Shown here one piece after another: positions 3,399 through 7,800 of a stretch of DNA of 7,963 nt. Below the pieces are notes generated by a model that was given only the letters and a program-made list of their open reading frames with translations, made no database searches and was not told the origin of the DNA. Positions within the stretch are counted from its first letter, which is position 1. The number at the start of each line of letters is the position of its first letter. The translations under genes were made by a program, and so were the position numbers. Source of the DNA: a virus (Duplodnaviria; Heunggongvirae; Uroviricota; Caudoviricetes); IMG/VR virus record IMGVR_UViG_2636416161_000013, positions 1 through 7,963 of that record; one strand, given 5' to 3'.

Positions 3399-3698
3399 TT
3401 ACTCGTTGCTTATTGCTTTGGCAATCCCGGCGGTTTCGGCGCTATGCCATGAAAAAATTCCGCCGGATGAATGCATACCAGATTTTATTGATTGTAATTC
3501 CCTATAAATAATGTTAGACAGAGATGCAATTTCTTCATTTATAATTTCTGCTGATGCTCTGCCATTTTTATCGTCAAAAACCACAGATATTAAACTGACG
3601 AGATTAATCACATCTGTGAGATCTTCCTTTGCACTTTCTGTAAAAAAGCCAACATATTCTCTATCTAAAAAATTTTCGCTATTCTGACGTTTAGACAT
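3399..3698 (-). CDS. Hypothetical protein, 99 aa, moderately acidic, AT-rich gene
   Basis: ORF with ATG at 3698 and SD GGGGAG 5 nt upstream; stop TAA at 3401-3399. I counted about 15 Asp+Glu against 9 Lys+Arg. Visibly more AT-rich than flanking genes. No motif recognised. Confidence 0.6.
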   Translation of the reverse strand: MSKRQNSENFLDREYVGFFTESAKEDLTDVINLVSLISVVFDDKNGRASAEIINEEIASLSNIIYRELQSIKSGMHSSGGIFSWHSAETAGIAKAISNE

Positions 3699-3765: not shown

Positions 3766-3996
3766 TCAGGCGGAAAGCTGCGTCACCTTCAACGCCCTGA
3801 AATGTGTCATTCCCAGCTCTTCCAGCCCTTCGGCTGCGCGGCGTATGGCTTCGCCCGGTCCCGTTCCGTATACCGTTGCATGTGCATGTGCATGTGCATG
3901 TTTGGTTAACCCACGTTTATTAACGGCATAACCCAACACAAAGAAACGTTTTTCACCACTGCCATTATTTTTACGGGATGTTGAACGGGTTTTCAT
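3766..3996 (-). CDS. Hypothetical protein, 76 aa, containing an internal (His-Ala)4 repeat
   Basis: ATG at 3996 overlaps the stop of the upstream ORF in an ATGA arrangement (translational coupling). Encodes KHAHAHAHAT from a hexanucleotide tandem repeat. No family recognised. Confidence 0.6.
   Translation of the reverse strand: MKTRSTSRKNNGSGEKRFFVLGYAVNKRGLTKHAHAHAHATVYGTGPGEAIRRAAEGLEELGMTHFRALKVTQLSA
3876..3899. repeat. Perfect hexanucleotide tandem repeat (GCATGT)x4 on plus = (CATGCA)x4 in sense, inside the 76-aa CDS
   Basis: Direct reading: gcatgt gcatgt gcatgt gcatgt at 3876-3899; in frame it encodes His-Ala x4. Confidence 0.9.
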
Positions 3997-4183: not shown

Positions 4184-4366
4184 TTACCCCTCCATGATTT
4201 TTACTGCGCATTTGTGGGTTAATCGCCCCTGTTCATTCGTGCGGCTGTACTCCATGCGGCTGGCAGCACGCAGGGCATCATCACAGGTCTGATATTCCCT
4301 GACATGAAAAAACTGACGAACGTCGCCGCTCTGGCAGTTAATCAGGGTGATAAGGAGCTTAAACAT
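4184..4366 (-). CDS. Hypothetical small protein, 60 aa (MFKLLITLINCQSGD...)
   Basis: I prefer the ATG at 4366 (SD GGGAGG 6 nt upstream) over the track start at 4444, which is a GTG. It overlaps the stop of the upstream ORF as ATGTTTAA. No motif recognised. Confidence 0.55.
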   Translation of the reverse strand: MFKLLITLINCQSGDVRQFFHVREYQTCDDALRAASRMEYSRTNEQGRLTHKCAVKIMEG

Positions 4367-4886
4367 TGCACGCCTCCCGGATACGAATACGGGCAACAAA
4401 GACCAGACGGGATGCCGGAAGCAGGGCGCGCGCTTCGCGCTCACTGGCAGCGGTAACGGTATGAAGGCGAATATTTTTACCGTGGCACTGCATAAAGCGC
4501 CAGATAAAATCAGGGCGTGTTGATATAGCCATTTTGGCGGCTCCTTGATTAAGTTTACGGAGTCTCGCCAGCACGCTGCTAAACATGGTGGCGGGACGTA
4601 ACAGGGTTAGCAGACTGGCAATCAAGGAACCAGCGAGCGCAAAGGCTCCCCCATTACGCCCCGCCATAATACGGGGTAGGGTGGAATTACGGGCACAAAA
4701 AAACCGCATTACGGAAATATAGCGGCTACCCGCTTGATTGTTCAGGCTGCTAAACCCGGCACCCGCTTTATGAGGTGCGGGCAAACGATACGCCATGACA
4801 AAAAAGCGAGTCAAGCAATATTGCAAATTATTTTTGCTCACTTGCGCTGAGTGATTGATTTTAAAGAGTAAAAAAGCCATAATCAT
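4359..4886 (-). CDS. Hypothetical protein, 175 aa from the ATG at 4886, or about 145 aa if translation starts at the ATG at 4796 (MAYRLPAPHKAG...)
   Basis: Long minus-strand ORF whose stop overlaps the next gene start. The first 30 codons are AT-rich with only a weak SD (AGGCAGAA), so the true start is uncertain. No family recognised. Confidence 0.5.
   Translation of the reverse strand: MIMAFLLFKINHSAQVSKNNLQYCLTRFFVMAYRLPAPHKAGAGFSSLNNQAGSRYISVMRFFCARNSTLPRIMAGRNGGAFALAGSLIASLLTLLRPATMFSSVLARLRKLNQGAAKMAISTRPDFIWRFMQCHGKNIRLHTVTAASEREARALLPASRLVFVARIRIREACNV
4855..4883 (+). promoter_or_regulatory. Candidate sigma70-type promoter on the plus strand (TTGATT -17 bp- CATAAT), antisense to the small-ORF operon
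   Basis: -35-like TTGATT at 4855-4860 and -10-like CATAAT at 4878-4883 with a 17-bp spacer; a plus-strand hairpin/T-tract lies about 70-100 bp downstream. Motif match only, in an AT-rich region; weak evidence. Confidence 0.3.
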
Positions 4887-5080: not shown

Positions 5081-5401
5081 TTATTCAACTCTGGCGCTAC
5101 CGGATTCTCTCTCCCTTTTCTTTTTGGCGTTTTCGTATGGGTTATTCACTTTGGCAATAACTGGCGGATTACGTAGCCACCACAAAACATCACTTAACAG
5201 CCAGGTACATGAGCAACGCCCCAAAGAGTGACGAGGAGGAAAAGCACCGATCTTCTCCAGTTCCCAGCGGCGGGAGCGTGAAAGCGTGGTCATTTTTTTA
5301 CACTTCTCTTCCCTGATGCGTTCTTCGCAGTCAAAGCCATACTCGGCGAGTATGGTGCGGCGCTGTTCTGGAGTTGGTGGAATGAATGCGGATTGAGTCA
5401 T
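5081..5401 (-). CDS. alpA: AlpA-family (prophage CP4-57 regulatory / P4 Vis-like) helix-turn-helix transcriptional regulator, 106 aa with an N-terminal extension
   Basis: Translation contains MTTLSRSRRWELEKIGAFPPRHSLGRCSCTWLLSDVLWWL, matching the AlpA-type HTH pattern (SRST-like turn, G.FP, LG, W, Wl) as I recall it. ATG at 5401 with SD GGGGGA 4 nt upstream; an internal ATG at 5293 would give the about 70-aa core only. Confidence 0.8.
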   Translation of the reverse strand: MTQSAFIPPTPEQRRTILAEYGFDCEERIREEKCKKMTTLSRSRRWELEKIGAFPPRHSLGRCSCTWLLSDVLWWLRNPPVIAKVNNPYENAKKKRERESGSARVE

Positions 5402-5496
5402 ATTTCCCCCTATGTTTCTGAACTTTCGGGGGAGATTTTTGTTTTACGGAGTTTTGAAAGCAAGTATTAAAGGTCTTATTAAGATGCTTGCTGGTC

Positions 5497-6549
5497 TTAC
5501 TGAGATGATGCTTTAATCCATCTTGATATAGTACTTTTATCAAAGCGCATATTGAGTCCTGCCTCTCTTGCTTCCGCGGTCAATATATCAGCAAGTTTTA
5601 CCGGATTGTTTTCGAGTTCTTTATAATGAATAACAAGCATCGCACGAAAAAAATCCTTCATTGTTTTAGATAATCGTTCTATATTGTTTTTATTGGTGCA
5701 TATGTCTTTCTCTCCATCCTCAGAACTTAATATATTGTTACCCGCACACAAATATAAAGTATCTGCCAATGGATTAACATAATCTTTTCTTAACTCGCTA
5801 TTGGAGTTTGTAGCATTTTGTATTTTTAAAAAATCATTCTTTAAGATATATAAATCACCAATATCAAAAGAAACATCCTCAGTAACAATTAGTCCTATAT
5901 GTATATCAACGTCAGAAGCAATTATAATATTGCTATTAATTATTCGGTTGGCTTTAAACTTCTTATTAAAATCATAGTTGGCAAAAAAACTTCCCCCCAA
6001 AGCGAAAATGCCGCCTATTTCAACAAAATACTTATGGTATTTTTCTTGAATACCTTTAAATACTGGTGGCACAACTGCCACAGCTCTTTCATCCGTTGCT
6101 ATTCGATATACACTATATATGTGATAATTTTCCCCATAATATACCCCCCTGTTATAATAATTTAACAAAGCAAATGCAGTATCAATTGCTATGTCACCAA
6201 ATTTGGGCGCTACATATGAATGACTTAGAGATTCGCACATTGAATCAAATATAATTCTCGACTTGGTTTTTATATAATTAAAACCATGGTGTTCTGCCGC
6301 CCTTTCTGAAATGGCATCAAGATCAGATAACCGTGATTTACACGGTTCTGAATCCATAAACTTACGCAGACAATCGAAATTAACCACATCTTTTTCATCT
6401 GGGATATTTAATACTCCATATGCAGATTCAATTTTTATACAAATACGAATGCAGCCTGTCACAGCCCAATGAATAAGATCGTCAATATCGCAGTCTAATA
6501 ACTTTGCCGCGCGCTCAATAGGATAGTAATCTCTTAGTGGTAACGTCAT
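5497..6549 (-). CDS. Hypothetical protein, 350 aa, AT-rich gene immediately downstream of the integrase; function unknown
   Basis: ORF starts 16 bp after the integrase stop on the same strand with a weak SD. Asn/Ile/Tyr/Asp-rich product. N-terminal YYPIERAAKLLDCDIDDLIHWAVTG and C-terminal KSTISRWIK segments look HTH-like but match no motif I can name; no P-loop or other catalytic signature seen. Confidence 0.75.
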   Translation of the reverse strand: MTLPLRDYYPIERAAKLLDCDIDDLIHWAVTGCIRICIKIESAYGVLNIPDEKDVVNFDCLRKFMDSEPCKSRLSDLDAISERAAEHHGFNYIKTKSRIIFDSMCESLSHSYVAPKFGDIAIDTAFALLNYYNRGVYYGENYHIYSVYRIATDERAVAVVPPVFKGIQEKYHKYFVEIGGIFALGGSFFANYDFNKKFKANRIINSNIIIASDVDIHIGLIVTEDVSFDIGDLYILKNDFLKIQNATNSNSELRKDYVNPLADTLYLCAGNNILSSEDGEKDICTNKNNIERLSKTMKDFFRAMLVIHYKELENNPVKLADILTAEAREAGLNMRFDKSTISRWIKASSQ

Positions 6550-6565
6550 TCTTTTCGCTCACATA

Positions 6566-7768
6566 TTATTTATCTTTAACCATTTTTTCTAAACATTCAA
6601 GCCAGTCATTTAGAGCCTTTAATTTAAATGGGATATACTGGCTAAGATTATAGTTAAATTCTGCGGAGCCTGCATTATATACGTGACCTAATAATGACTC
6701 GACAATATGAGGCATTACCCCCATGTTGTTTAATCCAGTTGAAAATGTCCGTCTTAAATCGTGTAGTGTCCATTTTTCATTATGCCCGAATATTTTATAC
6801 ATTCTGCGACCTTTCAGAGAAACAGCTCTATGCGTTCTCTCCTCACCCAAAAGTAAGCCCGTCCTCCCGGTTTCCTGTTTTAGCTCTTTTAACCAGTCTC
6901 TTATGCCTTCGGGAATTGGCCGAATAATCTTTTTATTACTTTTACTGTTATTTCTTGGAACAATCCAAACCCATTCATTAAAATCCCACTCAATCCAATG
7001 AGAACGGCGAATCTCTACAGTTCTAGCCCCAAAGACAATAAGCAACTTTATTAATCTAGAAAAATAAATATCCCGATGTTTCTCCTTTGCAAAATACCAA
7101 AGATCTGATAGTTCGGCATCACTCAAAACACGGTCGCGCTGTCCGGCAGATTCCCCTACATCGGTTAACGTTAAATGAACCAGGGCATCACTGATGGCAT
7201 AACGCCGAACATTGCAAAACCGCAATGCCTGCTTGGAGAGCTGAAACATACGCCCCGCCGTTTTTGAACTTATAGCGCGAATCTCATCAAAACATTTTAC
7301 CCAATGGCGAGTATCGCACCGTGATAACGGATAATGGCCTATTCTGGGGTAGACATGTTTGCAGAATTGCGCCCTTATCAATTCCTCATCTTTGCGCTTA
7401 TGTCTTGCATAATTGACCAACCAATATTCCAACGCATCTCGAACAGTAACAGGAGCACGGGATTCTTCAGTAAAAAGTTGGAGTTCAATTTTTGGATCAA
7501 GACCATTAGCCAACCATTGACGGCAACGCTCACGCCACATCCTGGCATCTTTCAGACTAATATCAGGGTAATTCCCTAGAGTAAGACGAATAACTGAACT
7601 CTCACGCCCTCCAAGGCGATATGAAAAAACCCAGCTCACATGCCCTTTAGTTGATAACCTGACCCCTAACCCCTCTCCGTCAGCAAGCATTTCAACACGA
7701 TCCCTATGCGTTCCTTGCAGCGCCTTTAGTTTCCTGTCGCTGAGCTTATTCGTTCCAGACATCATCAC
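6566..7768 (-). CDS. int: Site-specific tyrosine integrase, P4 / CP4-57 family (tRNA-island type)
   Basis: 400-aa ORF. N-terminal arm-binding-like region LSDRKLKAL...GLGVRLSTKGHVSWVFSYRLGG...LGNYP.ISLKDAR and C-terminal catalytic region HDLRRTFST...LLGHVYN...Y. The track start at 7768 is a GTG; the first ATGs are at 7765 and 7762. Confidence 0.9.
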   Translation of the reverse strand: MMMSGTNKLSDRKLKALQGTHRDRVEMLADGEGLGVRLSTKGHVSWVFSYRLGGRESSVIRLTLGNYPDISLKDARMWRERCRQWLANGLDPKIELQLFTEESRAPVTVRDALEYWLVNYARHKRKDEELIRAQFCKHVYPRIGHYPLSRCDTRHWVKCFDEIRAISSKTAGRMFQLSKQALRFCNVRRYAISDALVHLTLTDVGESAGQRDRVLSDAELSDLWYFAKEKHRDIYFSRLIKLLIVFGARTVEIRRSHWIEWDFNEWVWIVPRNNSKSNKKIIRPIPEGIRDWLKELKQETGRTGLLLGEERTHRAVSLKGRRMYKIFGHNEKWTLHDLRRTFSTGLNNMGVMPHIVESLLGHVYNAGSAEFNYNLSQYIPFKLKALNDWLECLEKMVKDK

Positions 7769-7777
7769 CGTTCCGAT

Positions 7778-7800
7778 ATTGATACACGCATTGATACACG
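7778..7800. repeat. Two tandem direct copies of ATTGATACACG (7778-7788 and 7790-7800, 12-bp period) 10-30 bp upstream of the integrase start
   Basis: Read directly from the sequence; the position in the int 5' region suggests a protein-binding (operator or arm-type) site. Confidence 0.7.

Follow-up and report, generated by a model that had tools for sequence, protein, structure and literature searches.

What is the function of a gene that lies between the integrase and the activator, AlpA, of a phage satellite? The question is raised by gene X, a 350-amino-acid (aa) open reading frame (ORF) at 5497..6549 on the minus strand of a 7,963-nucleotide (nt) stretch of viral DNA (IMG/VR record IMGVR_UViG_2636416161_000013; the window, below, is this whole stretch). 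We propose, with moderate confidence and on the strength of sequence comparison, that X is a sequence-specific DNA-binding regulator in the int-X-alpA module of a subset of Enterobacterales satellites. An original prediction, made from the letters of the window, had read X as horizontally acquired cargo, with a novel regulator or a recombination directionality factor (RDF) as its fallback; two DNA-binding-type termini and allele-specific paired palindromes before alpA now favor the fallback.

Paired palindromes before alpA and the C-terminal module of X

X and alpA (5081-5401, minus strand) are separated by a 95-nt spacer, and two palindromes are found in it or at its edge. The proximal palindrome, CTTAATAAG, is a 4-1-4 repeat at 5475..5483 (centre 5479); it is a candidate X operator. 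No other exact CTTAWTAAG is present in the window, nor is there a second one anywhere in the ~13 kb element, where 0.14 would be expected by chance. The distal palindrome, CTCAGTAAG, read from the sequence at 5496..5504 (centre 5500), is degenerate and overlaps the X stop codon. The two lie exactly 21 bp apart, and perfect pairs with the same spacing are present in loci L002, L004-6, L016, L018, and L021. The spacers of 13 elements together hold 24 short palindromes (4-1-4 or 5-5), compared with 7.4 +/- 2.6 in shuffles, and pairs 20-22 bp apart occur in eight of the 13 elements, or about five independent allele groups, compared with 0.11 in shuffles. Each palindrome type is confined to the X-alpA interval of its element (7-13 kb scanned; chance 0.05-0.17).

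Which protein reads these palindromes? The last part of X, residues 292-350 (5500..5676, minus strand), is a three-helix, helix-turn-helix (HTH)-like module with the pattern ERxSK...NPxKLAxxLTAEAxxxG...FDKSTISRWIK, which we call type A, and the palindromes change with this module. Type A modules (...F[DS]KxT[IV]SRW[IM]K) are paired with CTTAWTAAG in Escherichia coli, Salmonella, Serratia, and Pectobacterium, and the relative position of the motif is the same in every type-A allele of the four genera. Similarly, modules containing ISKDTITNWLK are paired with CTAAWTTAG in E. coli, type B modules (PSGKxVQxWV) with GGAAWTTCC in Pectobacterium and Klebsiella, and type C modules (N[YF]xxWAxxI...FW) with AAGTTAGSYTAACTT at the gcd-site locus L021 and in Pectobacterium. 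Locus L007 encodes a distantly type-C-like module and has a plain 10-nt inverted repeat instead. Three Pectobacterium proteins, P0156, P0159, and P0166, represent natural swaps: they are 92-98% identical over residues 1-190 and 17-23% identical in the last 75 residues, and their palindromes are of type A, type C, and type B, respectively, with AlpA essentially unchanged. We considered AlpA itself as the protein that recognizes the palindromes and rejected it, since an identical AlpA (WP_000194274.1) stands behind different palindromes in NCTC9082 and E9. The natural swaps and the invariant AlpA thus assign the sites to the C-terminal module of X and not to AlpA, to Int, or to the N-terminal or middle parts of X. 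We infer from these pairings that the C-terminal module is probably the reader of the palindromes.

Where do the palindromes stand relative to the start of alpA transcription? A candidate alpA promoter, weak and sigma-70-like, occupies 5435..5463 (minus strand), with TTGCTT (5458-5463) as the −35 hexamer, a 17-nt spacer, and AAAAAT (5435-5440) as the putative −10 element. In 12 of 13 loci a C-rich tract is preceded, at a distance of no more than ~3 nt, by an xAxAAT element. Relative to the alpA start that this element would imply, the palindromes centre at ~−52 and ~−73 in the window and in L002, L004-6, L016, and L018; in L010 an exact palindrome lies at ~−51 with only degenerate copies upstream. 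The palindromes keep a constant distance from the −10-like element even as the X stop codon moves. No intrinsic terminator was called in the X-alpA spacer, and neither a promoter nor a terminator was called in the 16-nt int-X junction.

The alpA Shine-Dalgarno (SD) sequence is able to pair with the C-rich tract, which is located 12-17 nt upstream of it. In the window, the candidate hairpin that would mask the SD spans 5405..5433 (minus strand), with TCCCCC at 5428-5433, a 17-nt loop, and GGGGGA at 5405-5410. The minimum-free-energy fold of the spacer contains this hairpin, as does the centroid fold. RNAalifold analysis of 12 elements gives five pairs, two with compensatory changes (CCCCC/GGGGG versus CCUCC/GGAGG), and several pairs are broken. 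We regard the SD-masking hairpin as a candidate feature with moderate support.

The X family, its position, and its fold

Does X belong to a described family? Searches of full-length X against Pfam, PADLOC, PHROGs, and NCBIfam returned nothing meaningful, the lone match being a sub-threshold ACT domain (E 0.01); no PADLOC-DB v2 family matched at E<=1, tblastn against 50,697 phage records (INPHARED GenBank) found no homologue, and searches of the PDB by sequence, with the whole X profile and with each terminal domain separately, returned only noise. A word-indexed protein search with X found three proteins only. An exhaustive hidden Markov model search with a small profile, from the family profile seeded with the window X, found 254 cluster representatives at E<=1e-3, 23 of them at E<=1e-30, and a search with a 41-sequence profile identified members from E. 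coli, Salmonella, Klebsiella, Serratia, and Pectobacterium, all of them annotated as hypothetical and none containing a Pfam domain. X DNA is present in 30 of 5,426 complete E. coli genomes. The window protein matches the family profile over its full length, contains the LPLRxYYPxxRAAxLLxC and DLYIxKxDFL motifs (invariant or nearly so), and is encoded between a P4-type int and a long alpA. We found no description of the family in the literature; the paper on phage-inducible chromosomal islands (PICIs) that form capsids (cf-PICIs) and the EcCIMP1 paper (PMC11773190) do not treat it. X represents a family of Enterobacterales satellite proteins that had not been described, one whose domain arrangement is new and whose job, that of mobile-element regulator, is presumably familiar.

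The order int-X-alpA is found in all 16 distinct X members whose context was examined, and in none of these is X found in another context. The 16 span E. coli, Salmonella, Klebsiella, Serratia, and Pectobacterium, several integration sites, and at least five satellite backbones (Toprim-primase, D5-primase, RepA/AAA_25-helicase, cfPICI-like, and P2-capsid); the islands of the distant members, on contigs of Serratia, Pectobacterium, Salmonella, and Klebsiella, encode D5-type primases, RepA/AAA_25 helicases, or HK97 capsid-portal-terminase modules. X is always linked to a P4-type integrase, and in many elements, including the window's and its close relatives, it begins only 3-21 nt after int. In the window the start codon of X lies 16 nt past the int stop codon on the same strand, and the ORF list confirms the prediction of a 350-aa ORF at this distance and in this orientation. 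In cfPICI-like and D5-primase islands, on the other hand, the int-X spacer is a conserved 91-93 nt and is filled by the Rfam "int-alpA RNA" (RF02996, 54-66 bits; L007 11352-11418, minus strand; L010 9918-9983, plus strand; L013 9916-9984, plus strand). This RNA, absent from the window, sits in these islands between int and X and not directly before alpA.

In the hpt-gcd satellites related to the window's, there is always one gene between int and alpA. In the primase/P2-capsid type at this site the slot genes are X alleles of 346-354 aa; the allele of strain A36 (L003) is 66% identical to the window protein, and four other alleles are only 24-29% identical to it. The int and alpA DNA flanking those alleles is ~93-95% identical in most elements, and the divergent block begins in the last ~30 bp of int, takes in X, and ends ~35 bp short of the alpA start codon. 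The original prediction of a variable slot is partly right: in other elements the slot contains a DUF6387 protein, a 249-aa protein, or nothing, but X itself is flanked by int and alpA wherever examined. Pfam matched DUF6387 (PF19924) in the L009 slot protein only (E 2.3e-29). Neither occupant is a remote relative of X: hhalign of the X family against the L009 protein gave a probability of 0.5%, and it found no relationship with the 249-aa protein. In EcCICFT073, the prototype PICI and one studied by experiment, a 365-bp gap separates int from a short (62-aa) alpA, with no remnant of X. EcCIMP1_002 is an unlikely homologue, set apart by its description as a protein of ~10% the size of UvrB (PMC11773190).

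Is X a recent arrival? As had been estimated by eye at about one-third, the GC content of X is low: it is 33.7% (25.9% at third codon positions), whereas the primase has 47.8%, alpA 49.5%, and int 42.2%, and the sliding GC profile over X falls to 0.29-0.35. Low GC is common to every family member (0.33-0.38), whatever its host or neighbours, and at a Serratia locus with a GC content of 0.52 the X gene is still AT-rich. Low GC is therefore not evidence of recent gain by the window's element; AT-richness is a trait of the whole X family. Compared with the 75%-identical A36 allele, X has an overall ratio of nonsynonymous to synonymous substitution rates (dN/dS) of 0.34. The ratio is 0.02-0.07 for codons 1-60, where dS is 0.4-0.6, and 0.17-0.52 for codons 61-300. 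The middle of the gene is only 58-71% identical in nucleotide sequence to the A36 allele, versus 97-100% for codons 301-354 together with the downstream spacer. A near-identical C-terminal module and spacer beside a diverged middle indicates that module and spacer were exchanged between alleles as one block. X is a real gene, under purifying selection, and a mosaic.

An AlphaFold2 (AF2) model of X, built with 23 homologues (mean predicted local distance difference test score, pLDDT, 76.6; predicted template modelling score 0.68), contains a strand-helix-helix-hairpin unit (residues 8-48), a helical region (52-134), an alpha/beta domain (136-250), a disordered linker (272-292), and a three-helix unit (295-348, with helices at 295-308, 316-329, and 338-348). 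The conserved N-terminal winged helix, predicted to have the MerR/Xis/AlpA fold, comprises residues 1-48 (6406..6549, minus strand) and carries the motif LPLRxYYPxxRAAxLLxCxxxDLxHWAxxGxI. A central motif, FDIxDLYIxKxDFLxI ... ELxKxY, lies at the end of the alpha/beta domain (residues 226-258; 5776..5874, minus strand; pLDDT ~90). Averaged over 39 homologues, identity to the window X is 54% in the N-terminal domain, 14% in the middle, 36% in the central DLYIxKxDFLxI motif, 9% in the linker, and 28% in the C-terminal module. With the exception of G180 and D239/F240, the invariant residues are all N-terminal; K237, D239, and F240 of the central motif are invariant or nearly so. The HTH-like segments that had been noticed at both termini correspond in the AF2 model to the N-terminal winged helix and the C-terminal three-helix unit, the latter with trace profile support only. 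That no catalytic motif had been recognized agrees with the family alignment, in which no catalytic signature and no catalytic-type residue is conserved across the X family, and the Rx4H spacing (RAAEHH) pointed out in the window protein is likewise not conserved.

The modelled N-terminal domain superposes on Pukovnik Xis and on an AlpA-family excisionase, and in the model it has a winged-helix fold of both the MerR type and the excisionase type. At the level of sequence, X is unmatched by PF13411 and PF00376 at the curated threshold, and when the N-terminal domains were searched in isolation MerR_1 matched three of 22 members (best E 0.032) and MerR one of 22 (E 0.057), all far below gathering scores. 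PF05930 does not match X, while the neighbouring AlpA scores E 3.3e-7, and hhalign of the X family against AlpA gives a probability of 0.1%.

Possible roles of X

How might X act? We propose that int is the first gene of an int-X transcription unit and that X and Int would be produced together while the element is integrated. Through its C-terminal module X may then bind both palindromes (5475-5483 and 5496-5504) on the same face of the DNA, at ~−52 and ~−73 of the weak alpA promoter, and X bound there would set whether the satellite activator gene alpA is transcribed. The divergent middle of X could confer specificity or act as a sensor, perhaps through contact with a factor from the helper phage or the host, and the invariant N-terminal domain may contact a conserved partner, either DNA or protein. 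The SD-masking hairpin would keep read-through int-X transcripts from yielding AlpA: were the alpA promoter to fire at or after the C-rich tract, only the read-through transcripts would carry the masking arm. Fold-back inhibition in IS10 follows a comparable logic. Because the sites lie upstream of a weak core promoter, we lean towards activation or anti-activation of alpA over steric repression. Since a constitutively active activator would destabilise the island, some signal dependence of X is to be expected.

A number of observations weigh against a regulator that acts through these sites. The distal palindrome of the window is degenerate, matching at seven of nine positions, and the candidate alpA promoter matches seven of 12 consensus positions and is not called by a consensus scan. 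In several alleles the two palindromes and their flanks form perfect inverted repeats of 12-15 nt, and one compensatory change in those repeats (GCTT/AAGC versus GCCT/AGGC) fits an RNA hairpin equally well. The C-terminal HTH-like unit has an unusually long inter-helix loop and only trace matches to Pfam HTH_32 and LacI. The central domain has no structural match, and so a sensor role for it is conjecture. Some cfPICI-like elements at the same site carry the DUF6387 or 249-aa protein in the slot, and alpA of EcCICFT073 is helper-inducible yet the slot there is empty; thus, X cannot be a general induction mechanism. Finally, the module and the palindromes are physically adjacent, and their co-occurrence may in part reflect co-inheritance in single recombination events. 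Against this last point, the motif is kept across genera while the surrounding spacer has diverged.

Could X be more than a local regulator? In Gram-negative PICIs the activator of the PICI cycle is AlpA, and the founding paper describes the global repressor as "unclear" and the phage inducer as still under study (PMC6092414). A broader reading, which we offer as tentative and think doubtful in its full form, is that X senses the helper and acts as the switch in a large subset of AlpA-type Enterobacterales satellites, as the Gram-negative functional counterpart of the Staphylococcus aureus pathogenicity island (SaPI) protein Stl: it would occupy paired operators before alpA through its exchangeable C-terminal module, its hypervariable centre would bind a helper-phage protein, and the allele would define the inducing phages. 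Were this the case, X would close the gap between helper infection and the activation of alpA in the satellites that carry it. X is a concrete candidate for the control step at which Gram-negative satellites (PICIs, cf-PICIs, and P4-like elements) would sense a helper and switch on AlpA, in the many satellites that have it. The locus is also a case of modular evolution, in which a DNA-reading module would be swapped together with its sites. If X proves to be only an accessory modulator, it is still a new protein family worth naming, though of specialist interest.

The likeness to Stl and Rpr of SaPIs and Gram-positive PICIs is one of position and design. All are satellite-encoded beside int, combine a DNA-binding domain with a highly divergent, allele-specific region, and occur as many alleles among otherwise similar islands, and a coupling to the helper is proposed for them (for the role of Stl, see PMC6092414). 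However, we found no relationship of sequence or fold between Stl/Rpr and X. X is on the same strand as int and alpA and not divergent from the operon to be controlled, it has two DNA-binding-type modules, and its candidate sites are centred at ~−52 and ~−73, upstream of the −35-like hexamer and clear of the promoter. Gram-negative PICIs, moreover, are reported to use the activator AlpA and have no known repressor. Nor is X simply a regulator of the MerR kind. The MerR dyad lies inside an over-long −35/−10 spacer of 19-20 bp, whereas here the inferred spacer is 17-18 bp and the palindromes are upstream; the palindromes track the C-terminal module of X and not its MerR-like N-terminal domain, and X has no matching effector domain. 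The lambdoid immunity cassettes offer a parallel for the exchange itself: in both cases near-identical elements differ by a block in which a DNA-binding module has been exchanged along with the cognate sites next to it. In X, however, only the C-terminal module is exchanged with the sites, the elements are satellites, and immunity in the window's element appears to be RNA-based (C4/isrK).

Two alternatives to the proposed regulator are, in our estimate, about equally improbable. The first is that X is an RDF or an integrase accessory, whose Xis/AlpA-like N-terminal domain would bind the attachment-site arms or Int and steer excision versus integration, the rest of the protein modulating this activity. 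The superposition of the N-terminal domain on Pukovnik Xis and the AlpA-family excisionase, the short distance from a P4-type int, and the strong constraint on the N-terminal domain, the most constrained part of X, are all consistent with such a role. However, the RDFs of tyrosine integrases are usually small, and X is 350 aa with two further domains. This also separates it from the AlpA/Vis/Xis proteins (PF05930, PF12728; MerR-superfamily winged helix), which are roughly 60-110 aa and lack its extra central and C-terminal domains; X in turn has no Pfam AlpA match, and hhalign finds no sequence relationship between X and the neighbouring AlpA. These elements already encode, in the neighbouring gene, an AlpA/Vis-type protein, which is their usual RDF or activator. 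Furthermore, the allele-specific palindromes lie ~2.3 kb from the int-proximal attachment site and directly before alpA, and the direct repeats upstream of int are present equally in X-less elements, including EcCICFT073.

The second alternative is that X is accessory cargo carried beside int, for anti-phage defence, abortive infection, or helper interference, with HTH parts that serve autoregulation or nucleic-acid sensing. X is AT-rich with a fast-evolving middle, sister elements have unrelated genes in the slot and EcCICFT073 has none there, and in EcCIMP1, too, int and alpA flank a small gene of unknown function (PMC11773190). The main defence hotspot of P4-like satellites is adjacent to int; in P4 it lies between int and psu-delta-sid (bioRxiv 10.64898/2026.02.27.708500), an arrangement that differs from that of the window's element. 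Nonetheless, X has no PADLOC, PHROG, Pfam, or phage-genome match and no conserved catalytic residues, its low GC is a family trait and not a sign of recent gain, and the palindromes lie downstream of X, before alpA, and not in X's own promoter. Defence genes typically move between contexts, whereas the int-X-alpA synteny is strict wherever examined (16 of 16). These findings disfavor the horizontally acquired defence cargo of the original prediction, and they correct the default view that an AT-rich gene of unknown function beside an integrase is defence cargo.

Least probable of all, we think, is that the inverted repeats are hairpins at the end of the int-X mRNA, as terminator or stabiliser, and that X has some DNA-independent or non-specific role, for example as an adaptor for Int, AlpA, or a host factor through a CbpM/MerR-like domain: the long perfect stems and the one compensatory change would suit it, but each arm forms a palindrome of its own, something that a hairpin would not require; in the window and in L018 one exact palindrome persists, whereas the hairpin there is degenerate or extends into coding sequence; the repeats are not followed by a U-tract, nor was a terminator called; and the spacing is a constant 21 bp with the position fixed to the alpA −10-like element and not to the X stop codon.

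The surrounding satellite

What kind of element carries X? The window is 99.9% identical to E. coli NCTC9082, where it accounts for most of a ~12 kb island flanked by hpt and gcd. There the island encodes, in order, a MazEF-like pair, a P2-family major capsid protein, ogr/delta, an 889-aa Toprim primase, four small ORFs, an "Icd-like" protein, alpA, X, and int. Rfam identifies isrK (4697-4778, minus strand; 52.1 bits) and a C4 antisense RNA (4584-4671, minus strand; 74.7 bits, E 1.1e-12). RNA-based immunity regions of this kind occur in P4 and P1. The window's element is therefore a P4-like phage satellite, and it seems to contain an RNA immunity region of the P4/P1 type. Both RNAs fall within the 175-aa "Icd-like protein" ORF of RefSeq (4359-4886), which is probably over-called at its 5′ end. 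No tRNA gene is present in the window.

Downstream of X, the gene order is that of the P4 left operon (PLL - vis - CI RNA - ... - alpha), with an AlpA/Vis-like gene, the isrK and C4-type RNAs, the Icd-like gene, small ORFs, and the Toprim primase, and ogr/delta is present elsewhere in the element. By tblastn, the INPHARED GenBank phage records contain no X homologue. Unlike P4, the window's element has no annotated psu or sid and carries a P2-family capsid gene instead. This capsid gene is preceded by a hypothetical gene of 236-291 aa (L001 7894-9875, L003 10963-12901, L006 1-1476, and L021 6564-8554); in NCTC9082 the pair occupies the far island end, and in other strains it immediately follows alpA. 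It resembles a movable capsid module, carried by a P4-like satellite without annotated psu or sid. At the hpt-proximal island end, NCTC9082 and DLI.6n carry a MazE/MazF-type pair (L001 7258-7850), and strain A36 has a Hok/Gef gene annotated where NCTC9082 has MazE/MazF. This end may be the actual variable or cargo end of the element.

The two genes that flank X are readily classified. The integrase (6566..7768, minus strand) is a P4-type tyrosine integrase with Arm-DNA-bind_3 (PF13356, E 6.8e-20) and Phage_integrase (PF00589, E 3.2e-16) domains, and it is supported as well by PHROG 1 and RefSeq. AlpA (5081..5401, minus strand; PF05930, E 3.3e-7; PHROG 2790, E 4.6e-30) is 106 aa, a long form with a conserved N-terminal extension. 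Long AlpA proteins (94-106 aa) are encoded in all islands bearing X, DUF6387, or the 249-aa protein, with the extension FxPPxPEQRRxxLxEYGFxxxxRIREexC within residues 1-35; the 62-aa AlpA of EcCICFT073 lacks it.

Just upstream of the int GTG codon at 7768, a perfect direct repeat with a 12-bp period, GCGTGTATCAAT, is present twice on the minus strand (7778-7800). An equivalent pair is found ~20-50 nt upstream of int in every related island, including EcCICFT073 and the X-less islands, and its sequence varies with the integrase type: GTGTATCAAT, GTGTATCACT, TGTATAAACA, GTGGGGTAA, and GTGTAGTTAAT. We considered these repeats as targets of the N-terminal domain of X and rejected them on account of this variation with integrase type and of their presence in X-less elements. 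They are probably arm-type or autoregulatory sites of the integrase.

Finally, we note two features of the small ORFs. A second AT-rich gene, encoding 99 aa at 3399-3698 (minus strand; 35.7% GC, 28% at third codon positions), lies just upstream of the primase and has no Pfam, PADLOC, or PHROG match. A perfect hexamer repeat, 4.2 copies of TGCATG, at 3877-3901 within a 76-aa ORF (3766-3996, minus strand) encodes HAHAHAHA, and the tract is possibly slippage-prone.

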